From Elusimicrobiota bacterium (lineage in GTDB: Bacteria > Elusimicrobiota > Elusimicrobia > UBA1565), in contig JBDRPD010000079.1 of the NCBI GenBank assembly GCA_043827405.1, forward strand, positions 1 through 12,166: a DNA stretch of 12,166 bases. The letters run 5' to 3'. The position numbers and the translations under genes are program-made. This document shows positions 676 through 12,166 of the stretch, one piece after another. Positions within the stretch are counted from its first letter, which is position 1, and the number at the start of each line of letters is the position of its first letter. The notes beneath the pieces were generated by a model. The model worked only from the letters and a program-made list of their open reading frames with translations. It ran no database searches and was not told the origin of the DNA.

Positions 676-687
676 TAATTGAAACTC

Positions 688-1740
688 ATGGCCGGTACCG
701 AACTAGAATCCCTGCTCCAAGACTGCATACAGAAGGGTGCTTCCGACCTGCATCTTCTGCACGGTTCTCCGCCGATCTACCGCATCAGCGGGCAAATCGT
801 CGTCACCGACATGCCCCAGCAGGACAGCGGCAGCATCTGGTCCATGCTGCTCCCGTATTTCAACGACCGCCAGCAGCGGGCGTTCCAGGATATGAGCCGG
901 ATCAATATCTCGGTCACCGCCCCCACGGGACGCTTCCGGGTGAACCTCTGCATGACCCTCGGCACGGTAAGCGCCTCGATCCGGGTCGTCCCCAGCAAAA
1001 TCTACCCGCTGTCGGCGCTCGGCCTGCCGCCGATCGTGGGTTCGCTCACGCAGAAGACCCGCGGCATCATTTTCGTCACCGGCGCCACCGGCAACGGCAA
1101 AAGCACGACCATGGCGGCCATGCTGGATCATATCAACCGCAGCGGAAACAGGCCCGGCAAAGTCGTTACCATCGAAGATCCGATCGAAACGCTCTTCAAG
1201 CCGGCGAAATGCGTATTCCTGCAGCGCGAAGTCGGGGTCGACACCCCTTCTTTCGATCTCGGCATCGAGGACGCCCTGCGCCAGGACCCGGACATCCTGT
1301 GCATCGGCGAGATGCGCACGCCGGAATCGATTCGCGCCGCGCTCATGGCGGCCGAGACCGGCCATCTGGTCCTTACCACCCTGCACACTCCGGACGCCGC
1401 CAAGACCGCGCAGCGGGTCATCAGCATGTTCCCCGGCAACGAGCAGGAGACGATCCGGGACCAGCTCTGCAATACGCTGGAGGCCGTGATATCGCAGGAC
1501 CTGATCACGCGGGCGGACGGCAAGGGCCGCATCCTCGCGATCGAGGTGATGCTGGCGGTCCCGGCGGTGCGCCAGCTTATCAAGAAGGGCAACCTGGAGC
1601 AGATTTACGATCTTTTGCAGACCGGCACCAGCCAGGGGATGATCTCCAAGGACGCATCCATAAAAGCGCTCTATCAGCGCAGCCTGATCTCCCGTGAGAG
1701 CGCTTTGTCCCACATGCGAAATCCCCAGTTGTTGGCCTAG
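688..1740 (+). CDS. pilT: PilT/PilU-family type IV pilus retraction ATPase
   Basis: GASDLHL, Walker A GATGNGKST, Asp box TIEDPIE, Walker B region LRQDPDILCIGEMR, His box GHLVLTTLH, and AIRNLIRE-like AVRQLIKK. Start is ATG 688 or TTG 679. May be a paralogue rather than the main pilT. Confidence 0.9.
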   Translation: MAGTELESLLQDCIQKGASDLHLLHGSPPIYRISGQIVVTDMPQQDSGSIWSMLLPYFNDRQQRAFQDMSRINISVTAPTGRFRVNLCMTLGTVSASIRVVPSKIYPLSALGLPPIVGSLTQKTRGIIFVTGATGNGKSTTMAAMLDHINRSGNRPGKVVTIEDPIETLFKPAKCVFLQREVGVDTPSFDLGIEDALRQDPDILCIGEMRTPESIRAALMAAETGHLVLTTLHTPDAAKTAQRVISMFPGNEQETIRDQLCNTLEAVISQDLITRADGKGRILAIEVMLAVPAVRQLIKKGNLEQIYDLLQTGTSQGMISKDASIKALYQRSLISRESALSHMRNPQLLA

Positions 1741-2798
1741 TGTCCCGTTCCGCCGCCTTGCCGTCCATCCTCATCGCATTCTCCACCGCCTCCCCGGTAT
1801 TCGCCGCCACATACGTGAAGCGCTGCCCGCGCGGCACCGTGCCGGTGCGCACGGCGGACGCCCGCATGCCGTGGTCCTGTATTATAGAGGGCGAGCGCTA
1901 CCAAAGCGGCATCGACTGTCCGCAAGGCTTCCGTCCGGTGACGACGACCGACCCCTTGGACCCGTTTCGGTGCGGGAAGACGGATATTCAGCTGAAAGTT
2001 CCGCGGGGGATCTGCCCTCCCGGACACCGCGTCATCCCTACCAATGATCCGGACCGGGATTACGACTGCGAACGGATTAAAAAGGGCTTCGATTCCGGAC
2101 CCCGCTGCCCGCGCGGGACCATTCCCGTGCCGACCCCGGGGGCCCTGCGGCCTTTTCGCTGCGTGCGGCGCGAAAAGTCCGCTGCGACGGAGCCTCTCGC
2201 CGCCCCGGATTTCGGCCCGCAGCAAAACAAAAAAGAACGCAGCGGGGACGTCAAGCCGACGAAAGAAGGCTGCCCCAAAAGCATGCGGCTGGTGCGCACT
2301 GAAAATCCGTTCGACCCCGTCAAATGCGTGCCGCGCAAGCGCGAGCCCGTGCGGCACGGGAGCTCCCAGGTGTTCCGCATCCGCGGCCAGATATCCTTCC
2401 TCTACCCGAAGAAATGGCATCTGACCAATGCCTGGAAGGACGAGGATGTCCCCACCATATTTCTCGCCGCCGATACCGGCGGTGATGGCCGGCCGGTCAG
2501 CATCACGATCAGCCGCCAGCGGCGAGGCAGCCCGTCGTATATCGATTTAGCGACGACCATCCAGCGCGAAAAGGAATGGCATAATGCCGTGGAAAAGGAT
2601 AGCGGCGAAATCGCCGGCCTGCCGGCCAAGTTCCTGATCGTGCCCAACGAATCGAAAACAGCCTTCCTGACTATTCCTGACGGTTATTACGCCATCGCCT
2701 TCAGCGCCGCGCCGGATCAGTACGACAGCTACGCGGACGTCTATGACAAGCTGCTGGAATCGTTCAAGCATTATACGGGGAGCAAAGACGATGATTGA
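1740..2798 (+). CDS. Secreted Cys-repeat protein with a PsbP/DcrB-like C-terminal domain
   Basis: GTG start overlaps the pilT stop by 1 nt. Signal-peptide-like N-terminus (..SPVFA/A). Five Cx17C repeats. ISFLYPKKW and YYAIAFSAAPDQYDSYADVYDKLLESFK resemble the start and end of PsbP/Mog1/DcrB-fold domains. Confidence 0.75.
   Translation: MSRSAALPSILIAFSTASPVFAATYVKRCPRGTVPVRTADARMPWSCIIEGERYQSGIDCPQGFRPVTTTDPLDPFRCGKTDIQLKVPRGICPPGHRVIPTNDPDRDYDCERIKKGFDSGPRCPRGTIPVPTPGALRPFRCVRREKSAATEPLAAPDFGPQQNKKERSGDVKPTKEGCPKSMRLVRTENPFDPVKCVPRKREPVRHGSSQVFRIRGQISFLYPKKWHLTNAWKDEDVPTIFLAADTGGDGRPVSITISRQRRGSPSYIDLATTIQREKEWHNAVEKDSGEIAGLPAKFLIVPNESKTAFLTIPDGYYAIAFSAAPDQYDSYADVYDKLLESFKHYTGSKDDD
1824..2327 (+). 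repeat. Five protein-level repeats C-P-x7-T-x8-C
   Basis: CPRGTVPVRTADARMPWSC, CPQGFRPVTTTDPLDPFRC, CPPGHRVIPTNDPDRDYDC, CPRGTIPVPTPGALRPFRC, CPKSMRLVRTENPFDPVKC. Confidence 0.9.
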
Positions 2799-3555
2799 CA
2801 TCGAGAACAACGACGGAGTTCGCAGCATCTGGCTCAACAGCCCCCCCTCCAACAGCCTGACGCCGGAGCTGCTCGACGCGTTGCGCGGCGCTGTTCGCGC
2901 GGCCGGCGCCGAGCGGAGCGTGCGCTGCCTGCTGCTGGGCTCGCGGCTGCCGAAGTATTTCTCATCGGGCATCGATATCGACGCCATCTTTGCCCCTCCG
3001 CCCGCCCGGCGTATCGAAATATTCATGAACGTACTGGAGACCCACCGCGAACTGGCGGAGCTGCCCAAGCCGACCATCGCCGCGCTCCCCGGCTACGCGA
3101 TGCTGGCCGGCTGGATCATGGCGATGGCCTGCGACTTTCGGATCATGGCGGAAAAGACGGGCCGGGTAGCCCTCAGCGAGATTCGTTTCGGCTTGACGCC
3201 GACGGAGTTTATGCTGCGCCGGCTGCGGGAAATGGGCGCCGGCATGAACGCGGCCAAACAGCTCGTCCTGCGCGGGAAGACGCTTAAAGCTCAGGAAGCC
3301 CTGGACGGCGGCCTCGTCGATCAACTGGTCCCCGCCGCTGAACTGGCGGAGTGCGCGCTCCAGGAAGCCAAGAAGCTCGCAAAGCTTCCTCCGGAGACCT
3401 ACGCTTCCATTAAACGCGATCTCGCGGCATCCGCCGGCGTCCGGGAAGGCCTCTGGGAGAGAAGCATGGCGGAGTTTCGCCGGGTTTATGAAAGCCCGGA
3501 AGCGCAGGCAGGGCTGACGGCCATGCGCGAGAAACGAACACCGGTATACCCCTGA
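2791..3555 (+). CDS. Enoyl-CoA hydratase/isomerase (crotonase) family protein
   Basis: LNSPPSNSL, FSSGID, LPKPTIAA, MACDFR, LSEIRFG and EALDGGLVD motifs. ATG 2791 follows GGGGAG (2777-2782) and overlaps the upstream gene by 8 nt, so it is preferred to 2743. Confidence 0.9.
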   Translation: MIDIENNDGVRSIWLNSPPSNSLTPELLDALRGAVRAAGAERSVRCLLLGSRLPKYFSSGIDIDAIFAPPPARRIEIFMNVLETHRELAELPKPTIAALPGYAMLAGWIMAMACDFRIMAEKTGRVALSEIRFGLTPTEFMLRRLREMGAGMNAAKQLVLRGKTLKAQEALDGGLVDQLVPAAELAECALQEAKKLAKLPPETYASIKRDLAASAGVREGLWERSMAEFRRVYESPEAQAGLTAMREKRTPVYP

Positions 3556-3600
3556 GGAAGCAATGAGCCAATACTTCGCCAACGACCTGAGGGTTCCGCG

Positions 3601-4248
3601 ATGAACATCCGCGCGCTGAAGCGCTACCTGCTCACCGGCTTCATTATCGTCGCGCCGATCAGCATTACGCTGTTTTTGCTGCTCTCCTTCATATCGATCG
3701 TCGATTATTTACTTGGTCCGATCGCCTATACGGTTCTCGGCCGCCAAATTCCGGGGATCGGAGTTATCGTCGCCTTTTTCCTGCTGCTGCTGGCCGGCAT
3801 CGCCGGCTCAAACATCCGGGGACAGCATATCCTGGACTGGATCGAGGACGTTTTCCTGCACATCCCGGTCGTCAACTGGCTCTACAGCACCGTCAAGCAG
3901 CTGACCGACGTTTTCTCGCCCGGCGGCAAGATGCATTTTCAGAGCGTCGTTATGATCGAATACCCGCGGCCCGGAGTCTACAGCCTCGGCTTCGTAACCA
4001 ACGACATTGAAGCGCATCGTCCGGACGGCACCGTGCAGCGCATGTGCGCGGTCTACATCGCGACCAACCACCTCTACATCGGCGACCTCGTGCTGGTGCC
4101 CGAGGACAAGGTACTGACGACGCCCATGACGCTCCAGGAGGGAGTCCAGTGCTTCCTCTCCGCGGGGGCCGCCATCCCGCGCCGGCTGAACCTGGAGACA
4201 AAAAAACCGGGGTCCTCCACGCAGGAGAACCCCGGTATCTCGACGTAA
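3601..4248 (+). CDS. DUF502-family inner membrane protein
   Basis: LKRYLLTG..P..IT N-terminus, two hydrophobic segments, IPVVNWLYSTVKQL and VMIEYPRPGVYSLGFVT, matching the DUF502 pattern. Confidence 0.85.
   Translation: MNIRALKRYLLTGFIIVAPISITLFLLLSFISIVDYLLGPIAYTVLGRQIPGIGVIVAFFLLLLAGIAGSNIRGQHILDWIEDVFLHIPVVNWLYSTVKQLTDVFSPGGKMHFQSVVMIEYPRPGVYSLGFVTNDIEAHRPDGTVQRMCAVYIATNHLYIGDLVLVPEDKVLTTPMTLQEGVQCFLSAGAAIPRRLNLETKKPGSSTQENPGIST
4200..4236 (-). terminator. Intrinsic terminator of the ytxH-like gene, inside the 3' end of the opposite-strand DUF502 gene
   Basis: Minus strand ACCGGGGTTCTCC-TGCGT-GGAGGACCCCGGT (one G-U pair) running into a T7 tract, about 20 nt after the stop at 4256. Confidence 0.8.
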
Positions 4249-4255
4249 AGGTTGT

Positions 4256-4513
4256 TCAGGCTTCGACCTTTTCCGCCGTCACGTGCTCGTTGCGCTTGAA
4301 GACCTTGCGGCTGGCTTCCAAGATTCTTTCCTTGTGCTCGGGAAGGTTCTTGCGAAACTCTTCGACCGCCACCGAACCCTTCTCCCGCTTGTCTTCCAGC
4401 CAGTTGGTGAGCTCTTCCCGGGTTTCCTTGCCCGTCTTCGGCGCGAACAGAATGCCGATCACGGCCCCGGTCGTCGTCCCCAGCAACAGGTACACTAAGT
4501 TTTTGAAGTTCAT
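4256..4513 (-). CDS. YtxH-domain small membrane-anchored protein
   Basis: LLGTTTGAVIGILFAPKTGKETRE matches the YtxH signature (G..LL.AP.SG.ETR). GGGAGG Shine-Dalgarno upstream of the ATG. Confidence 0.9.
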   Translation of the reverse strand: MNFKNLVYLLLGTTTGAVIGILFAPKTGKETREELTNWLEDKREKGSVAVEEFRKNLPEHKERILEASRKVFKRNEHVTAEKVEA

Positions 4514-4623: not shown

Positions 4624-5649
4624 CTATTGGGGACCGGTAGAGATCACCCGCCAGCCCGAACCGGGAGGAGTCGCCACGTCGATCTTGGCATGCAGAGGAA
4701 CAGAATGCAGCAAGCCGAGCCGCGCGGAGAAAAACCCTTTATCGGCATTCACATACACGGATTCGCTCCAGAACTCGTCGCTCTCCGTTCCCGGCCAGAA
4801 GAAGCTGAGCAGATACTTTCCGGACAGCCCGGCGCCGTCCGCATCAGCCAGCAGGCCGTCGAACGCGCGCACTCCCGGCTGCAAGCCGGCGGCGGCCTCC
4901 TCGCCGGGGACGGTAAACAGAACGCTGAGCCGGCCGCCGTTCCAATCCAGACGGAAAGGGACCTCGCGTTCCACATCCAAGACGACGCGCGTATAGGGGA
5001 TGCCCCCGCGTGAAAAGATTCCGCTGCGCGCCTCCCGCAGCACGCCGGGACTATCGGAACGGCGCCGCAGCCAGCGGGCGCGCCGGGTATCCTTGAGATC
5101 GATGATCAGCCGCGGCGGATCGCTCATGTAGAAGACTTCATGCTCGGCCTGCCGGGAAAGCAGCAACGCGGCGCGGTTGCCGTCGATCACTATGTCGCTG
5201 AGCGTAGCGCGGCCGGCCGCGGGCGGCGCCAGCGGCGCGACAGCGTCCCGCAGCTCCTCCGGGTCCGGCCGGGGCGTAAGCCGCAGCGAAATATTGGGGC
5301 CCTCGCGGCGCGCCTCGAAGTCCGCGTCGCGCATCAAATCGACAACCACCCGCGCGGTCCACCCGGGAGCCGAGGCGTACTGATCGGAGCGCACGGTTAG
5401 TATCTGGTCACCGCCCAGATAGAGCCGCCGCGGCTTGCCCTGGTGCCGGGTGCCGTGGAGATCGATAACGATCCGGGGCGGCGACTGCAGCTTGTACGCT
5501 TCATAGGCCGCCGGCCCGCTGAGGCGCAGGTGCACCCCGTTGGAAAATGCCCGCACATGCTCGAGGCTGGCATCGGCGCGCGCGTTCGCGAACGCCGTCA
5601 GCACCAGCAGCACGCTCAAGCCAAAGGTCGACAGGGTCTGCGCTCTCAT
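4624..5649 (-). CDS. Secreted protein with two AMIN domains and a C-terminal domain shared with the LysM protein
   Basis: ATG 5649 preceded by GAGGTG. Signal peptide ending ..ANARA. Two copies of the AMIN pattern (PPRIVIDL..RVVVDL; PPRLIIDL..RVVLDV). No amidase or secretin domain follows. Confidence 0.8.
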   Translation of the reverse strand: MRAQTLSTFGLSVLLVLTAFANARADASLEHVRAFSNGVHLRLSGPAAYEAYKLQSPPRIVIDLHGTRHQGKPRRLYLGGDQILTVRSDQYASAPGWTARVVVDLMRDADFEARREGPNISLRLTPRPDPEELRDAVAPLAPPAAGRATLSDIVIDGNRAALLLSRQAEHEVFYMSDPPRLIIDLKDTRRARWLRRRSDSPGVLREARSGIFSRGGIPYTRVVLDVEREVPFRLDWNGGRLSVLFTVPGEEAAAGLQPGVRAFDGLLADADGAGLSGKYLLSFFWPGTESDEFWSESVYVNADKGFFSARLGLLHSVPLHAKIDVATPPGSGWRVISTGPQ

Positions 5650-5680
5650 TTTACACCTCTTCCGAATTTTTCCCGCAAGC

Positions 5681-5712
5681 AAAAAAGCCGGGTTCCCCCA
5701 AAGGGAACCCAG
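5681..5712 (-). terminator. Terminator-like hairpin upstream of the AMIN gene
   Basis: Minus strand CTGGGTTCCC-TTTGG-GGGAACCCGG then CTTTTTT. Confidence 0.7.
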
Positions 5713-5759
5713 AGGTTGTCATAGCAATGGATGCGGGGTCAGCTCGGCGTGGTCACGTC

Positions 5760-5782
5760 AAAGCTCGCGCCAAAGCGCGAGC
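5760..5782 (-). terminator. Hairpin immediately after the beta-barrel stop codon
   Basis: Perfect 8-bp stem GCTCGCGC-TTTG-GCGCGAGC followed by only TTT: a weak terminator or a stabilising stem. Confidence 0.5.
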
Positions 5783-5786
5783 GCGG

Positions 5787-7442
5787 CTAAAACTCTACGC
5801 GCAGATCCATCGACGTCCGGTCCACGCGAAAATCGTACTGCTCGGGGAAATTGCTCAGGCGCTGCCGATGCTCGTGCCGCAAGCCGGCGGACAGCCATTT
5901 TTTAAAGCGGTAGCTCCCGCCCACGGAAAATGAGTAGGTATCGTCGCGGCGGAATTTGGTCTCGCCGGCGAGCGTCGACGGGTCGGGGTAACGTCCCGCC
6001 TCGTAGCCGCCGCTCATGTCGAGGCGCAGCTTGCTGAAATCCTGCGCCACGCTCAGGGAGCCTCCCGTCGAGATAAAGTAGCGGTTATTGAGCGCCGTCG
6101 ACTCCTGGATGCTGCGCTGCACTTTCAGCCCGACAGCGGTACGCCGGAGCATCTGATAGTTCAAGCCGATATTCATCGCCAGCGTGCTCTGAACCTTGCG
6201 CGCGCCGACCGGGGCCTCGCCGTAGCGGCGCACATGCGCGCCGGCGTCAACGGCGCCTTCCAGCTTCGGCGCCAGCCGCCCCGAGACGCCGAGACCCAGC
6301 CGGTGCGATTTGGAGTGGTCCGTACGCCCGGCGGAATAATGCACGCTCTCGCGGTGATAGTGCATAAACAGCTTGGCCCGCGGCCGCAGCTTGATGCCGC
6401 CATAGCCGCCGAAGGAAGCCTCATAGCGGTTGAGCAGCGCGCTCAGCTCGCCGTCGAGATACTTATGATGCGTATTGCTGGCGTCAAAGCCGTAGACGAA
6501 TATACGGCTGCGCTCATTATCGATGCTGGCCCGCATCGTATTCTGGTAGCGGCGCTTGCGCGTTACCAGCTCACTGAACGCCGGGTCCTCCGTGTTCCGA
6601 TAGTCGTTGTCGAGCCGCGCTTTCAGGCTGCGGCGCGGATTGTACTCGTAATGGGCGCTGACATGCTGCGCGCTGGAATTGTTCGCGCTGGGCTGCCTCG
6701 AGTAGGCCTCGAAATAGAGATCATACAGCGTTTCCAAGCGATGCCGCCGGTTGAGCGGTATGATCACTTTCGAGCCGAACGTATTGCGGGTAATCCACGA
6801 GCCGACAACGCCGCCGCCGACCGTCGTGCCGTCCGCCTTGTCTTTGGGAACGGCGTAGATGTTCGAATCGTATATCTGCGTCAGGGCGTAGAACGGATGC
6901 AGCTCGATGAGGAACTTTATCTCCCTGGGCCGCACCCGCGCCAGCTTATGGAAGGCGTCGCCGATAGCCGTCAGGGGATCACCGGATGGCTCCGTCTCCG
7001 GAACCGCGGGCGCCGGGACCGGCTCGACGACCGCGGTCGGCGCTGCCGGCGGCGCGGCGGCCCCGGTGCGCGCGCCGCTGACCGCCAGGAACTGGCCGGC
7101 GCCGACGACCGCCGTAGGCTTCCCGGGCAAGGTGACGCTCAGCTCACCTTTGAGCACGAGAATCTGCGCGCCGTCATCCGAGGCGAGAAAGCTGAAAGTA
7201 TCCCCCGCATCCGCCAGCACCAATGCCCCGTCGACGCTCATCGTCGCCCGGCCGGAGAGCACCGTGGTCTTCACTCCCTCCGGCACGGAGAAGCCAAGCG
7301 AACCCTCCGTCAACTGGATGAACTGATCGCCCGCCTGCAGCGTCAAAGTGTCCTCAAATCCAATAACCTGCAGCGCCGGTACGGCCGCATGGGCGACCGC
7401 CGCGCAACCGGCCGTCAGAATGACCGCTATTAGCTTTCGCAT
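5787..7442 (-). CDS. Outer-membrane beta-barrel protein (BBP2/EpsL-like) with an N-terminal FecR-like beta domain
   Basis: Signal peptide (..AVAHA), beta-rich region ending VLKGELSV..VVGAGQFLAV, Pro/Ala linker, then ~380 aa of amphipathic strands with an early YDSNIY motif and the BAM-type C-terminal signal MDLRVEF. Confidence 0.8.
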   Translation of the reverse strand: MRKLIAVILTAGCAAVAHAAVPALQVIGFEDTLTLQAGDQFIQLTEGSLGFSVPEGVKTTVLSGRATMSVDGALVLADAGDTFSFLASDDGAQILVLKGELSVTLPGKPTAVVGAGQFLAVSGARTGAAAPPAAPTAVVEPVPAPAVPETEPSGDPLTAIGDAFHKLARVRPREIKFLIELHPFYALTQIYDSNIYAVPKDKADGTTVGGGVVGSWITRNTFGSKVIIPLNRRHRLETLYDLYFEAYSRQPSANNSSAQHVSAHYEYNPRRSLKARLDNDYRNTEDPAFSELVTRKRRYQNTMRASIDNERSRIFVYGFDASNTHHKYLDGELSALLNRYEASFGGYGGIKLRPRAKLFMHYHRESVHYSAGRTDHSKSHRLGLGVSGRLAPKLEGAVDAGAHVRRYGEAPVGARKVQSTLAMNIGLNYQMLRRTAVGLKVQRSIQESTALNNRYFISTGGSLSVAQDFSKLRLDMSGGYEAGRYPDPSTLAGETKFRRDDTYSFSVGGSYRFKKWLSAGLRHEHRQRLSNFPEQYDFRVDRTSMDLRVEF

Positions 7443-7453
7443 TATCTATTTAC

Positions 7454-7493
7454 AAAAAAGCCGAACACCACGACACTTCTCGTGGAATTCGGC
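7454..7493 (-). terminator. Terminator-like hairpin in the 5' leader of the beta-barrel gene
   Basis: Minus strand GCCGAATTCCACGA-GAAGTG-TCGTGGTGTTCGGC (one G-U, one mismatch) then TTTTTT, ending 11 nt before ATG 7442. Confidence 0.65.
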
Positions 7494-7527
7494 GTACGGA
7501 AACAGCACATACATCCCAAGCACGTAC

Positions 7528-7556
7528 AGTATAAGCCAGTTTCCTCTTTAATTCAA
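7528..7556 (-). promoter_or_regulatory. Sigma70-type promoter upstream of the beta-barrel gene
   Basis: Minus strand TTGAAT (7556-7551), 17 nt, TATACT (7533-7528), with an AT-rich UP-like region at 7557-7610. Confidence 0.65.
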
Positions 7557-7610
7557 TAGCATATTTTAATGTCATATTTACTAAGAAACCGGGTGAAATA
7601 AATTCTTATT

Positions 7611-8342
7611 TTATTTAGCTATTTTAGGTATCAATAACCTCTGCCCGGGGACCAGTTCGCCTCCCCGACGAATTCTGTCGCTATTTGCTCGGTAAATATC
7701 GATCCAATGCACCGAGTTGCCAAACAGCTTCTGTGCTATGCTGCGCAGCGTATCGCTGCGCTGAACGACATATAAATTCGCCACCGCTCTCTTGGGTTCC
7801 CCGGCATGCTTAACGGCCTGCTCCAGCACTTCCAACCGGCGTTTGTACTCCGCGATCTCCCGGCGCTCTCCTTGCGCGGGCGGGTCATAGCGCTCTTCCG
7901 CCCGAACCTGCGGTTCGACGGCCGCCGGTTCATAGGACGGGTTCGACGGCGCCGGCGGCACCGAAGGCACCTCGAACGGCGGCGGCGGCGGCGCGGCGTC
8001 ACCGACCTTCCAGTTCGGCGCCGCCGCCAAGCGCACGGCCCAGCCGGTCCCCGCAGGAGGCTCGAATTTCAGACGGTATCCTTTGACCCGCAACTGCTCC
8101 GGAATCGGCTTCTTGTCGCCGATAACAGCGGCGAAGCTTCCGTCCACCGTCCGCACATACCGCGTCTCCTCCCACACTTTCTCACCGCCTACGGCGTCCA
8201 ACAGGCTCACCTTCAGGAGATATGTACCGCTCATGCGATTGCCCGCGGCGTCCTGCAGACTGCCCCGCATCTCCAGGAGCGACCGCGCGTCGGCGGGAAC
8301 CGCGGCCAAGAGCATAATGAGCGGGAAAAGTTTTTTGATCAT
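7611..8342 (-). CDS. Secreted LysM peptidoglycan-binding protein with an N-terminal domain shared with the AMIN protein
   Basis: AAAGGAG Shine-Dalgarno, ATGA overlap with the upstream gene, signal peptide (..VPADA), Pro-rich linker, short coiled coil, and C-terminal LysM YVVQRSDTLRSIAQKLFGNSVHWIDIYRAN..LVPGQRLLIP. Confidence 0.88.
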   Translation of the reverse strand: MIKKLFPLIMLLAAVPADARSLLEMRGSLQDAAGNRMSGTYLLKVSLLDAVGGEKVWEETRYVRTVDGSFAAVIGDKKPIPEQLRVKGYRLKFEPPAGTGWAVRLAAAPNWKVGDAAPPPPPFEVPSVPPAPSNPSYEPAAVEPQVRAEERYDPPAQGERREIAEYKRRLEVLEQAVKHAGEPKRAVANLYVVQRSDTLRSIAQKLFGNSVHWIDIYRANSDRIRRGGELVPGQRLLIPKIAK

Positions 8343-9595
8343 TTTAGTGACACTCCTTTCTCGATCTTGGTGAAAGAGTCCAGCGGACGTATCTGCAGCG
8401 ACTGGGAACCGTCACGCGCCAGCCACAGTTCATTGTCCTTCCAGGTAAATGAGGACAGCGGCGTAGGCCCTTCATCCAGCTGCTCGAGAGAATACGCCGA
8501 GAGAACGCGCAGCTTCTCGTCCAATCGATGCTGGTATATCATGCGCGCTTCGGAGTCGGCGGACCAGAAATAGGAATCATCCTTAAAGACCGCGGTCGGG
8601 GCGTTGCCCGGAGCGCGGTAGGACGCGAGCACGCTCAAATTCGCCTCGGTCTCATGCTGGTAGAAGCGCTTGTTAGCGGAGTCGCTCGACCATAGATAGC
8701 GGCCGTCCCAAAACAGCCCCGACGGGCTGGGGCCCGGACTGTTATAGGTCTGCACCAAGGTAAGATTATCATCGAGCCGCCGCTGCTGGATGACTTTTTT
8801 CCAGGAGTCGCAGACATAGACGTGCTGGTCGGTAACGGCCAGACCCGTGATATGCGTCTGCGGCAGCGGATAGGAACGCACCACCTCGAGCCGGCCGCCT
8901 TCCAGCTTGTTCTCGTAGAGCGTCTGCGTGAGCCAGTCGGCGGTCCACAGCCGGTCGCCGTGCCAGACCAGGGCGGTCGGGTTTTCGTGCGACAGGTTCA
9001 AGCTCCTCCCCCCCCCGCCGGCGAAGATGCTCCAAAAAACCATCAGCAGCACCATCAGCGCCATTACGGCCGCGGGGACGAACCAGGACGCGGGGTCGCC
9101 GCTGATCACGGACGCCGGGACGAGCGCCATGGCTCGCTCAATGACCGCCGGCGGCGCGGACTCCGGGCGCGCGGCCGGAACGCGGACCTTATCGGCGAGC
9201 CGCTTGCTCAGAATGCCAGCCGGCGGCTCGACCATCTTGCCGGAAAGCACGCGCTCCACGGTCTCGCGCAGCTCATGGTTGCTGAAGGGCTTCGCCAGGT
9301 AGTGGCTGGCTCCCAGCTGCATAACCTCAACCGCGGACTCCACGCTGCCGTAGCCCGTGACCATGATAACAGGCGTTGTCCGATCGGATTCGCGCAGCTT
9401 GCGCAGTATCTGTACGCCGTCCATGCCGGGCAGGCGGATATCGAGCAGGATCAGGTCGGCCTTCTCGCGCGCATGGAAATCAAGCGCGTCCGGCCCGTTC
9501 TCCGCCTCGAATACCTGATGCCCCATCCGGTTCAGGACATTGCTGAGAGCCATCCGCATGTCCGCTTCATCATCGACGACCAGGATGCGCGCCAT
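8339..9595 (-). CDS. Membrane-anchored response regulator: receiver, TM helix, beta-propeller
   Basis: Complete receiver (VVDDE, LLDIRLPGMDG, MVTG, LAKPF). Hydrophobic segment WFVPAAVMALMVLLMVFWSIF (aa 171-191). Five blade-like repeats centred on LWTAD, VYVCD, LWSSD, FWSAD and LWLAR. Confidence 0.85.
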   Translation of the reverse strand: MARILVVDDEADMRMALSNVLNRMGHQVFEAENGPDALDFHAREKADLILLDIRLPGMDGVQILRKLRESDRTTPVIMVTGYGSVESAVEVMQLGASHYLAKPFSNHELRETVERVLSGKMVEPPAGILSKRLADKVRVPAARPESAPPAVIERAMALVPASVISGDPASWFVPAAVMALMVLLMVFWSIFAGGGGRSLNLSHENPTALVWHGDRLWTADWLTQTLYENKLEGGRLEVVRSYPLPQTHITGLAVTDQHVYVCDSWKKVIQQRRLDDNLTLVQTYNSPGPSPSGLFWDGRYLWSSDSANKRFYQHETEANLSVLASYRAPGNAPTAVFKDDSYFWSADSEARMIYQHRLDEKLRVLSAYSLEQLDEGPTPLSSFTWKDNELWLARDGSQSLQIRPLDSFTKIEKGVSLK

Positions 9596-9596
9596 A

Positions 9597-12166
9597 TCAG
9601 CCTCTCTTGCCCTGCGCCGGGATCTTCAGGACGGCCCGGGCGCCTTTTCCGCCCTGCGCGGAGAACTCGAAGGACCCGCCGTGCGCCGTCAGGATTCGCT
9701 TGGTTATCGCCACCCCGAGCCCGACGCCTCCGGGCTTGGTCGTAAAGAACGGCTGTCCCACCTGCTTGAGGTGCTCCGGCGCCACCCCCGCGCCCGAATC
9801 CGTCACTTCAACGGACACGGTCTTCGCCTCGGCGTCGAAGCTTCCCGCCACGCGCAGCGTACCGCCCTCGGGCATCGCCTCGTAGGCGTTCATCAGCACG
9901 TTCAGCAGCGCCTCTTCGACGCGCCCGGCGTCCATAGTGACCGCCGGCAGGTCTTCGGGGATATCCGTCTCAATGCGTATTCCACGCGTCTCACACATCC
10001 TCCGTATCTGCGTCACCGCCCCCGCGACGACCTGAGCGAAGCCCGCGGGCTTGGAACTCAGGCTCAGCGGACGCGTAAAATCCACAAGCTGATCGACCCT
10101 CTCTTTGAGGTTGCCTATCGCCCGCATGATCGCGTCCATCGTCTCGCGTTCCTTGCGCCCGACCCAGACCCCGCTAAGGCGGTCCTCCGCCAGGCTCTGA
10201 ATAATGCCCAGCGGGTTCCGAATCTGATGCGCGATGCCGAAGACCAGATCGTTAAGCTCCGCCTCGAACGCTACCTGGGGTATCTTACCTTTCAATTCCC
10301 GCGTTCGGAAAGAGGCCAACAGCCGGTTGCGCAGCTCGCGCAGCTCCTTCTCCTTCTCCCGGACCTTCTCCTCCGAGGACTTCAGCTTTTCGCCGCGGCG
10401 CGCGAGATCCTCCTGCTGCGACGAGAACGCCTGTTCGAGCTCCGCGCTGCGCGCGCGTACCGTCCGCTCCTCTTCTTCCAAGCGCTGGCGCAGCTTGTCG
10501 TCCGAGCCGCGCACCAGGTCCTCGACCTCCTCGCGGCGACGCTTCAGGTCGATCTCTGCTTCCTGCAGCCGGCGCTCGCGCTCATGCAGCCCTTCGGTCC
10601 GCAGGCGTACGGTCTCGTCGATCTGCTGGGCGCTGAGCTTCTCCAGCTCCCGGCGGCGCACGTCGAACTCTCCCTGCAGCGCCTGCCGCTCCGCCTTCAG
10701 CTTCTCCAACCCGGACTCGAGCTGGCTGGCCTCGTTCTCGGTCATGCTCGCCCGCATTTCCTGCTCCAGCTCGGCGCGCCGCCGGGCCAGATCCTCATCG
10801 GCCGCCCGCTGGCTCTCCTTGAGCATCCTTCGTTCCTGTTCGAGACGCATCTCGAAATCGCGCTCCAATGAACTTCGCCGCTCCGCCCATTCGCGTTCCA
10901 GCAGCTCCTCGCGCTTCTTCAGGCTGTCGTTGAGGCGCTCCTCCTGGCGGTGGAAAGCCTTCTCGCGCTCCTTGATGCGTTCGCGCAGCTCCGCCTCCAT
11001 GCGGAAGCGCTCCTCCTCCCTGATCTTGCCGCGCAGCTCGTCTTCCCGCCGCGCGAAATCCTGCTCCAGCGCCTCGCGCTCCTCTTCCAGACGCTGATCC
11101 TTGCGCGCCAGCTCCTGGCGCAAGGCCTGATGCATATCCTCCGAGGATTTCTTAAGCTCCGTGCGGTTGCGCTCCTGCGCGGCGCTGATCTCCAGCAGCA
11201 GCGCTTCCTCCCGCTCGCTCCAGCTGCGCTGCAGCGCCTCATCGCGGTGCAGGAACTCCTTCTGCAGCTTGTGCTCGCGCTCGCGGAACTCCTGCTCGAG
11301 CTTGATCCGCCGCTCCTCCAGCTCGGACTCCCGGCGCCGCAGCGTTTCCGTATCCGCGTCCAGCTTGCGGCGCAGCTCGTGCTGCTCGCTCTGCAGCGCC
11401 TCCCGTATCTTGGCGGTCTGCTCCTCGAGCTTTTCGCTGCGCTCCTGATACGCCGCATTGAGCCGCGATTCGATCTCATCGCGCCGCTTGGCGTATTCTT
11501 CACGCTCGCGCTCAAGCACGCCTTTCGCCTCTTCCCACTCCGCCTCAAGCGCCGCGCGCTCTTCGCTGAGACGCCGCTGACGGTCGGCGTCCGCCTTCAC
11601 CGCCTCCTTGCGGAGACGCTCTTCGCGCTCGGAGATCGTCCTCATCAGACCCGATTCCTTTTCGCGATATTCGGCGACGACCCGCTTCTTGAACTCGTCG
11701 GCGTCCTGCATCTTCCGGGCATGCGCGGCCTCATACGCGGCCCGCTCCTTGGCGGCTTCCTCCTGGCGGACGCGGTAGGCGTACTCCAGCTCATCCTCGC
11801 GCTTGCGGAACTCGCTTTCCAGCGAGGCGCGGCGCTCGGCCAGTTCCTTGACCGAGCGCTCAAGCTCGTCGCGTTTCTTCGCCAGCGAGGCTTCGAGCTG
11901 ATCCCGCTCCTGTTCGAGCCGCGCCGCGGAATCGGCCTCGCGATCGGCGATCACCTGCCGCGCGGCCTGCTCCTGCTCCGCCAGCGCGCTTTTCAGCGCC
12001 GCTTCCTTCTTCTTGTAATCGACCCCCAGCTTTTCGCGGGCGGCCGCCAGCTCGGCTTCGCGCTTCGCCAGCTCTTCGCGCTCCCGCGCGAGCGCCGCCA
12101 GGCCTTCCGCCTCCCGGTCCTTAAGCGCCTGCTGCGCCGCCTTCTCCTCCTCCGCCAAGGCGTTCT
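9597..12166 (-). CDS. Histidine kinase (HisKA/HATPase_c) with a very long coiled-coil N-terminus, 5'-truncated
   Basis: H box IAHQIRNPL, N box NVLMNAYEA, G1 DSGAG, F box FFTTK, G2 GVGLG. More than 600 aa of E/R/K/A/L-rich helical sequence upstream. The frame has no stop up to the window end. Confidence 0.9.
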   Translation of the reverse strand, partial: NALAEEEKAAQQALKDREAEGLAALAREREELAKREAELAAAREKLGVDYKKKEAALKSALAEQEQAARQVIADREADSAARLEQERDQLEASLAKKRDELERSVKELAERRASLESEFRKREDELEYAYRVRQEEAAKERAAYEAAHARKMQDADEFKKRVVAEYREKESGLMRTISEREERLRKEAVKADADRQRRLSEERAALEAEWEEAKGVLEREREEYAKRRDEIESRLNAAYQERSEKLEEQTAKIREALQSEQHELRRKLDADTETLRRRESELEERRIKLEQEFREREHKLQKEFLHRDEALQRSWSEREEALLLEISAAQERNRTELKKSSEDMHQALRQELARKDQRLEEEREALEQDFARREDELRGKIREEERFRMEAELRERIKEREKAFHRQEERLNDSLKKREELLEREWAERRSSLERDFEMRLEQERRMLKESQRAADEDLARRRAELEQEMRASMTENEASQLESGLEKLKAERQALQGEFDVRRRELEKLSAQQIDETVRLRTEGLHERERRLQEAEIDLKRRREEVEDLVRGSDDKLRQRLEEEERTVRARSAELEQAFSSQQEDLARRGEKLKSSEEKVREKEKELRELRNRLLASFRTRELKGKIPQVAFEAELNDLVFGIAHQIRNPLGIIQSLAEDRLSGVWVGRKERETMDAIMRAIGNLKERVDQLVDFTRPLSLSSKPAGFAQVVAGAVTQIRRMCETRGIRIETDIPEDLPAVTMDAGRVEEALLNVLMNAYEAMPEGGTLRVAGSFDAEAKTVSVEVTDSGAGVAPEHLKQVGQPFFTTKPGGVGLGVAITKRILTAHGGSFEFSAQGGKGARAVLKIPAQGKRG

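Follow-up and report, generated by a model that had tools for sequence, protein, structure and literature searches.

A receiver-propeller and LysM-stalk module of the Elusimicrobiota: a putative phosphorylation-gated envelope clasp

Introduction

What is regulated by a response regulator whose receiver domain leads into a transmembrane helix and a propeller, and whose gene is wedged between those of a coiled-coil kinase-type protein and a LysM protein? This question is raised by the window analyzed here, a stretch of 12,166 nucleotides that makes up an entire contig (JBDRPD010000079.1, denoted C79) of the genome of an Elusimicrobiota bacterium (GCA_043827405.1, denoted G000; C-numbers below refer to contigs of this genome and L-numbers to fetched loci). 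An earlier note on this DNA proposed that five co-oriented genes, for a coiled-coil kinase, a receiver-transmembrane (TM)-propeller protein, a LysM protein, an outer-membrane barrel and a tandem-AMIN protein, form an undescribed envelope-spanning system. We find an envelope module that is real and conserved and, apparently, undescribed, and which is narrower in its core parts and far wider in its range than these five genes. In the reading that we favor, with a probability of about 0.5, the locus would encode a phosphorylation-gated clasp, partly deduced from structural models, that joins the inner membrane to an outer-membrane or cell wall tether.

Results

Conservation of the gene cluster and its core

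The five open reading frames (ORFs) all lie on the minus strand, at positions 9597 to 12164 (kinase-type protein, open at the contig end), 8339-9595 (receiver-TM-propeller), 7611-8342 (LysM), 5787-7442 (barrel) and 4624-5649 (AMIN). The gap of 1 nt (9596) between the first two genes and the ATGA overlap (8339-8342) between the second and third are present as claimed. In the same order, the Pfam matches are HATPase_c (E-value of 4e-19), Response_reg (2e-33), LysM (1e-6), BBP2_2 (2e-11) and two AMIN domains (3e-14).

Synteny was assessed in 16 fetched loci that match this receiver-propeller protein (L031-L046), the named relatives all being Elusimicrobiota. The order kinase, receiver-TM-propeller, Ig-like-LysM, 18-strand barrel is found in 12 of the 16 loci, with the last two genes directly downstream; among the remaining four, two carry the Ig-like-LysM gene upstream of the kinase gene and lack the barrel, and two end inside the kinase gene such that neither gene is seen. 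Thus, the proposed synteny in related genomes holds, with the qualification that all 12 syntenic loci belong to the window's own family and, given this kinship, do not count as independent. The AMIN gene was rejected as a core part, given that only 5 of the 10 loci reaching far enough have it after the barrel gene.

Beyond the family, a profile search with the propeller yielded matches at an E-value of 1e-40 in 59 of 251 genomes of the phylum, and none in the 79 and 70 genomes of two large families (the listed members of one of these have genomes of 1.2-1.7 Mb, and the two might be the gut-associated lineages). The LysM is present in 55 of the 59 propeller-containing genomes. When the results of the two independent genome searches were combined, a LysM-family match on the same strand was found within 11 kb of 66 of the 94 propeller matches, and within 3 kb of 56; in genomes outside those used to build the alignments, 33 of 44 propeller matches have a LysM within 11 kb. 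Seven unlisted LysM matches were left out of this proximity count, and L051, a duplicate of L043, was left out of all counts; two of the 33 propeller-LysM pairs, from the truncated loci L046 and L050, were omitted from alignments A2 and A3. In genomes with a LysM match only, a diverged, weaker propeller was found next door in six of eight fetched loci, and the other two show the kinase gene and then end.

The form in which the LysM occurs differs across the phylum. Over 53 propeller ORFs, the nearby LysM is fused to a PorV-like barrel in 21 cases, to the Ig-like domain in 14 and of another kind in two, and is lacking in 16. The commonest order among 20 loci sampled throughout the phylum is a large gene with a type IX secretion system (T9SS)-like C-terminal domain (CTD), a PorV-like barrel-stalk-LysM gene, a coiled-coil kinase-type gene and the receiver-TM-propeller gene. 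The PorV-like barrels match the PorV/PorQ model NF033709 with E-values of 1e-9 to 1e-21, below the cut-off of that model, and the CTD genes beside the cassettes are of the CHU_C/FlgD type. Because the propeller-LysM linkage persists across barrel types, the constant neighbor of the propeller is the LysM-tipped stalk, rather than any one type of barrel or the AMIN protein. The view of five genes as the unit therefore has to be replaced with one in which the kinase-type protein, the receiver-TM-propeller protein and the LysM-tipped stalk are constant, the barrel type varies and the AMIN protein is optional. Variants of the cassette include a paralogous one in the same genome (L025, C32:8187-11606), in which a PorV-like barrel-stalk-LysM gene is followed by a pseudo-receiver-TM-propeller gene, and one (L058:7931-10696) in which the same LysM stalk is part of a ComEA-like/metallo-beta-lactamase-fold protein, the gene for which is directly followed by one for a coiled coil-TM-propeller protein.

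The receiver-propeller protein and its predicted contact with LysM

The protein encoded at 8339-9595, as delineated with Pfam, a fold model and hydrophobicity, starts with a receiver domain (residues 4-113) in which the DD pocket, D53, T and K are all intact; in an alignment of 37 receivers, all have the phospho-accepting Asp and nearly all have the acidic pocket. The receiver is followed by a single strong hydrophobic segment (residues ~167-194, with a TM helix at ~171-191) and by a propeller (~197-412), which was modeled as five-bladed with a pLDDT of 95.8 and a pTM of 0.91. No DNA-binding or AAA+ output domain was found in this protein, as the earlier note had observed; the receiver leads to the TM helix and the propeller instead. 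In 46 of 51 ORFs, the propeller comes after a hydrophobic segment; given that the receiver is taken to be cytoplasmic, the propeller is likely periplasmic. The closest folds by TM-score are glutaminyl cyclases (0.74-0.77, with 13-14% sequence identity); neither Pfam at an E-value of 0.05 nor a PDB sequence search at an E-value of 1 gave a glutaminyl cyclase match.

The LysM protein (7611-8342) consists, according to Pfam and the model, of a signal peptide, an Ig-like domain (residues ~19-112), a Pro-rich linker, a short coiled-coil stalk and a LysM domain (191-239). The latter is of the Kbp/phage-tail type and contains an Arg-Gly loop (R226-G227), which is missing in Escherichia coli Kbp and in a LysM from outside the cassette in the same genome (C63).

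The pair of propeller and stalk-LysM was chosen for complex prediction on the grounds of its phylum-wide linkage, and scored 0.65, compared to 0.01 for the best of three controls. Three runs gave 0.65, 0.67 and 0.03, with a contact agreement of at least 53% and a partner pLDDT of at least 71. In a benchmark, 116 of 157 solved complexes and 2 of 215 mismatched pairs attained this level, a guide that is rough here, with our own alignments used. One confident interface was thus obtained among those that the earlier note had envisaged. In the model, R226-G227 of LysM inserts at the center of one face of the propeller, against W221, S348, S381 and D395. The inserting residue is Arg in 24 of 32 LysM domains and Lys in three (27 of 32 basic), and the facing propeller residues are retained as well, with W221 in all 32 sequences and an acidic residue (D/E) at position 395 in 29 of 32. 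The model supports binding of LysM by the propeller. Because the predicted interface employs the LysM regions that normally bind peptidoglycan glycan, the wall and the propeller would compete for this domain. The earlier statement that LysM binds peptidoglycan may, therefore, be half the story.

A giant coiled-coil protein with a kinase-type domain

The first gene of the cluster is truncated by the contig end, and the feature at 9597-12166 (minus strand; Pfam) is the 3' third of a gene for a giant coiled-coil protein with an NtrB/AtoS-like core (DHp and HATPase_c). Its missing start is located on C56, where an open 1,837-aa coiled-coil ORF (C56:18508-24019) accounts for the N-terminal ~1,830 aa and matches the N-termini of the giant proteins of relatives. 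Over its final 198 nt, the window matches the end of C56 with 91% identity; the two contigs share an exact terminal overlap of 24 nt, which is in frame by arithmetic. Read depth is 29.8 over 12026-12166, compared to 14-16 on the flanks (run X1, possibly the source of this DNA). The overlapping ends and the doubled depth of the terminal piece indicate that the assembly broke in an internal repeat of ~59 residues, one copy of which lies at 11990-12166 (minus strand) and the second at the end of C56, and that the joined protein comprises ~2,685 aa. Nine complete relatives are 1,636-2,859 aa long. A short kinase was accordingly rejected, its apparent shortness being due to the assembly break: the coiled coil and kinase-type domain that the earlier note had described are there, but the gene is not complete in the window.

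The rod contains no proline over 620 and 1,837 residues, and its hydrophobic autocorrelation at lag 11 is 0.36, compared to a maximum of 0.13 in 1,000 shuffles. Fully extended at 1.5 Å per residue, it would measure roughly 350 nm.

The best-scoring models for the kinase core are AtoS and ZraS, and the best one for the receiver is AtoC. The His box and the ATP-binding N, G1, F and G2 boxes are present in the alignment, and the ATP-binding boxes are kept in the cognate kinases; the Pfam HisKA family itself gave no match in the window protein. The H-box of this protein reads His-Gln-Ile-Arg-Asn-Pro, with the His codon at 10227-10229. The cognate set comprises 33 kinase-type proteins, that of the window among them, whose genes directly precede a propeller gene. 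Q follows His in 24 of these, R in four and K in one, with no aligned His in four; an acidic residue (E/D) was found at this position in none of the 33, whereas among the 56 kinase-like ORFs of this genome, 39 of 42 motif matches have E/D there. The residue at His+4 is Asn in all 29 cognate proteins that possess a His. Passages of PMC3510030 state that the acidic residue after His is needed for autokinase activity, and that the E372Q substitution in CrdS abolishes kinase activity and leaves phosphatase activity, for which the Asn is required. Because no cognate protein has an acidic residue after His, the odds are slightly better than even that the kinase-type domain acts as a phosphatase or a docking partner. 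The designation of this protein as a kinase is therefore doubtful.

The intact receiver Asp implies that a phosphodonor should exist. A PAS kinase is encoded just upstream of the giant gene on C56 and in the loci of eight relatives, with a sigma-54 regulator between the two in two loci; judging from its gene position, the PAS kinase on C56 is a candidate phosphodonor. Farther upstream of this PAS kinase, on the opposite strand, is a gene for a 1,846-aa protein without a Pfam match (L021:1539-7079).

Fusions and decayed pairs on the cytoplasmic side

This genome harbors six propeller genes, three of which are direct coiled coil-TM-propeller fusions (C85, C62 and C83). Among the remaining paralogs, one, the receiver of which has decayed, has a PorV-like-LysM gene as its neighbor; another is preceded by a 1,898-aa coiled-coil gene. 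In a six-sequence search, the N-terminal motif of the giant protein was shared with C85 (E-value of 2e-8) and C82 (1e-5). The C85 gene (L024:8777-13873), which encodes a 1,082-aa coiled coil-TM-propeller protein, directly follows a Wzc-like gene, and on C82 (L026:2601-9290) the 1,898-aa coiled-coil gene precedes a TM-propeller gene. In a ~690-aa class (12 sequences), a coiled coil, stretches resembling a DHp domain and a receiver, a TM segment and a propeller follow each other in order in one chain (hhalign E-values of 7e-4 and 1e-4). The gene pair is also kept where the His is lost and the receiver has decayed or a TPR-like part takes its place (L059, L069, L070 and L072), and the N-terminal parts of the propeller proteins are receiver, TPR or plain coiled coil, depending on the protein. 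These fusions, together with the pairs that persist with His and receiver decayed, suggest that the kinase-receiver pair joins the rod to the membrane protein, in a way that can be switched where the catalytic residues remain.

The barrel, the shared Ig-like domain and the AMIN protein

The barrel protein (5787-7442) is composed, according to Pfam and the model, of a signal peptide, a small all-beta N-terminal domain (cupin-like by a weak Pfam match), a Pro/Ala linker and a BBP2_2-family barrel, with a further match to EpsL. In the model, 18 strands were counted, and the chain ends in Phe, so that the call of an outer-membrane barrel with a C-terminal Phe is borne out. A fold search retrieved only generic porins (TM-scores of 0.2-0.45 by query) and no specific homolog, and the window barrel gave no PorV/PorP match. 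A paralog on C62 adjoins an amidase gene. On C8 (L028:1239-4077), a split barrel of the window type, with a separate cupin-like gene followed by the barrel gene, lies directly before an OPX gene; this paralog is a candidate for an ordinary OPX/barrel translocon.

The AMIN protein (4624-5649; optional member) contains a signal peptide, two AMIN domains and a C-terminal Ig-like domain (Pfam and pairwise alignment). The domain shared by two members that the earlier note had perceived is a genuine case of homology: the N-terminal domain of the LysM protein and the C-terminal domain of the AMIN protein are 31% identical over 77 aa (pairwise E-value of 1e-7), and 21 copies from the fetched loci align on shared motifs. 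The domain matched no named Pfam family in the scan. In the Atlas, it was grouped with domains found at the N-termini of collagen-like, collar and S74 fiber proteins (TM-scores of 0.70-0.77), with a family score under the bar. On C53 (159277-164087), three tandem fiber-like genes of ~320 aa start with the same Ig-like domain, with a PorV-family gene next in line. If the fused barrel-LysM proteins are a guide, the Ig-like domain may link the stalk to the BBP2 barrel, and the AMIN protein may use its own copy likewise.

Other features of the window

A weak sigma-70-like site precedes the barrel gene (7528-7556, minus strand) in an AT-rich gap of 168 nt, at a junction where the same two genes overlap instead in several relatives, and a terminator-like hairpin with a T run lies between the barrel and AMIN genes (5688-5712, minus strand). 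The counts of promoter-like (2 vs 1.2) and terminator-like (7 vs 6.3) features in the region are no higher than in shuffled sequences. Two RNA runs yielded nothing but short off-target pieces. The cluster is flanked by genes for a PilT-family ATPase, enoyl-CoA hydratase, DUF502 and YtxH-like proteins (679-4513), which recur beside the cluster in several relatives of the family, and positions 2-613 encode an FkbM methyltransferase. Between the pilT and enoyl-CoA hydratase genes (1740-2798) is a gene for a 352-aa protein, signal-like at its start and containing repeats rich in Cys and Pro (CP.G..P), without a match in Pfam or NCBIfam; similar ORFs occupy the same place in L031, L039 and L042.

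Discussion

A clasp across the envelope and its alternatives

In the proposed clasp, the likely periplasmic propeller would grip the LysM tip of the product of the next gene, and the giant cytoplasmic coiled-coil rod would dock, through its kinase-type domain, on the receiver, which it would likely dephosphorylate. In most Elusimicrobiota, a stalk would connect the LysM tip to a PorV-like barrel, the gene for which has a large T9SS-like cargo gene as its neighbor; in the window, the stalk-LysM is a separate protein that would attach to the BBP2 barrel via its Ig-like domain. An outer-membrane barrel, perhaps together with surface cargo, would thus be connected via the clasp to both the inner membrane and a cytoplasmic scaffold. 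The predicted interface and the usual glycan-binding surface overlap, so that the LysM tip would bind either peptidoglycan or the propeller, with the choice made by the phosphorylation state of the receiver. The trans-envelope, non-transcriptional interpretation of the earlier note fits these data, given that the synteny holds, no DNA-binding output was found and a propeller-LysM interface is predicted. As a tentative extension, which we consider possible and clearly less secure than the clasp itself, the cassette might operate as a clutch throughout the phylum, in which a regulator with a periplasmic output moves LysM-tipped barrels that display giant T9SS-like surface proteins between peptidoglycan and rods hundreds of nanometers long by capturing or releasing the tip, with a dedicated phosphatase at the rod end setting the state.

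Several observations weigh against the clasp. One of the three complex runs scored 0.03, neighboring genes picked blindly pass the complex prediction in 7 of 44 cases, Gly replaces the inserting Arg in three LysM domains, and the polar interface positions are not significantly more conserved than other polar positions (entropy of 1.90 vs 2.22; permutation p of 0.09). There is no LysM within 11 kb of 28 of the 94 propeller matches, including four paralogs of this genome, and two loci (L033 and L034) have the Ig-like-LysM gene and no barrel. On the cytoplasmic side, the matches of the ~690-aa fusion class have low HH probabilities (27% and 56%), and the clasp would depend on relay of the receiver state through a single TM helix. 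His-Gln also occurs in two upstream PAS kinases that precede sigma-54 regulators (L036 and L043), and a preprint, in the part consulted, warns that the His+1 rule may fail for some families (bioRxiv 10.64898/2026.02.27.708494). Finally, there is no cultured carrier of the cassette.

The same predicted propeller-LysM interface could instead serve sensing from the outside in, which we regard as rather unlikely, albeit the best surviving alternative. Propellers are common sensor domains, and the propeller would detect the LysM protein, that is, wall attachment or barrel assembly; the signal would then alter receiver-kinase binding or drain phosphate, feeding into other two-component pathways such as those of the upstream PAS kinase and sigma-54 regulator, the genes for which are located as such a route would have them. 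However, the giant protein has neither a sensor domain nor the acidic residue of a kinase, and the cassette persists with a decayed His and receiver, which would be needless for pure signaling.

These decayed pairs, along with the direct coiled coil-TM-propeller fusions and the varying N-terminal parts, speak for a constitutive tether, namely, a fixed strut from the inner membrane to the outer one or a positional scaffold in which the kinase-receiver pair is a joint and phosphorylation plays a minor role. Such a tether appears improbable in view of the retention of the phospho-accepting Asp in 37 of 37 receivers, of the acidic pocket in nearly all of them and of the ATP-binding boxes in the kinases.

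Much more doubtful is an ordinary two-component pair that happens to lie beside unrelated envelope genes, with the propeller being a glutaminyl-cyclase-like enzyme or an inert appendage. The fold similarity to glutaminyl cyclases and the presence of unrelated neighbors (pilT and DUF502) in the family synteny are compatible with this possibility, but the identity to these enzymes is low, Pfam gives no such match, and the linkage with the LysM stalk extends across the phylum and has withstood rearrangement. The weakest alternative, polysaccharide export through the barrel as an EpsX-type channel that the other genes regulate or anchor, draws on the BBP2_2 and EpsL matches, the 18 modeled strands and the C8 paralog beside an OPX gene, an arrangement known from EpsX/EpsY in the part of PMC9601211 consulted, but was rejected for want of an OPX gene at the locus: within the window, Pfam detects neither an OPX or co-polymerase gene nor one for a glycosyltransferase, none were recognized beside the barrels of relatives (in ORF maps only, not with Pfam), and most cassettes in the phylum have a PorV-like barrel instead.

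Comparison with known systems

Our searches of PMC and bioRxiv, with subscription papers and supplements outside their scope, found no description of this module; the earlier note did not recognize the combination. By analogy, the module would work most like the PorP-PorE-cargo tether of the T9SS combined with LapD-like control from the inside out, and it fails membership of both. In the T9SS, as outlined in the consulted part of PMC9143113, a PorP/SprF barrel that holds cargo with a type B CTD is tied to the wall by PorE, an outer-membrane lipoprotein with TPR, periplasmic propeller, Ig-like and peptidoglycan-binding OmpA_C domains. The phylum-wide cassette is similar in that a PorV/PorQ-like barrel gene adjoins CHU_C/FlgD-type CTD genes. 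However, the domains are distributed over different chains here, LysM replaces OmpA_C, and the propeller, which follows a receiver, has its anchor in the inner membrane and a coiled-coil kinase-type protein attached; in the window, moreover, the barrel is of the BBP2 type and no cargo gene lies beside it. Elsewhere in this genome, there are ~28 PorV/PorQ-family genes (30 matches), and a 1,936-aa frame (C17:10240-13182) resembles the SprA translocon (E-value of 8e-20, below the cut-off); searches with SprA_N and GldM gave no match in the genome, and neither did their positive controls. Taken at the level of sequence matches, this hints at a T9SS-like system outside Bacteroidota.

LapD is a receptor for c-di-GMP, which it senses through degenerate GGDEF/EAL domains with HAMP and a PAS-like output, and it binds a protease. 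In Pseudomonas fluorescens, as presented in the consulted parts of PMC3032553 and PMC3032545, its cytoplasmic signaling domain controls a periplasmic output that binds a periplasmic protein and thereby governs a surface protein. The present module is not homologous to LapD and contains no GGDEF/EAL domains: it takes its input through a receiver, has a five-bladed propeller as output and is predicted to have LysM as the partner. NtrB/NtrC and AtoS/AtoC are similar in the adjacency of the genes and in the best-scoring kinase and receiver models, but the module has no sensor, a coiled coil of ~2,400 residues, Gln after His and no AAA+ or DNA-binding output. Likewise, the His and ATP boxes and the receiver residues of a canonical HisKA system are present, but the acidic residue at His+1 and a cytoplasmic output are not. 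In FimV/HubP, LysM and a scaffold are combined in one chain, and Scy/FilP are long coiled coils. These proteins are similar to the module in having LysM, a membrane anchor, a long cytoplasmic scaffold and an 11-residue hydrophobic periodicity; they differ in consisting of one chain or lacking a membrane module, with no receiver-propeller and no barrel. The EpsY/EpsX OPX translocon shares the barrel family and strand number, as given in the same part of PMC9601211, in contrast to the window, where OPX and polysaccharide genes are missing.

Implications

The expected site of action of a response regulator is the cytoplasm, and the expected ligand of a LysM domain a glycan, whereas this cassette, found in many families of a barely studied phylum, predicts a regulator whose periplasmic output grips a LysM domain. 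The cassette further hints at anchoring or control of T9SS-like surface display outside Bacteroidota. If the phylum-wide clutch is real, it would amount to phosphorylation-driven, inside-out control of the anchoring or positioning of adhesins, with LysM serving as a protein ligand.

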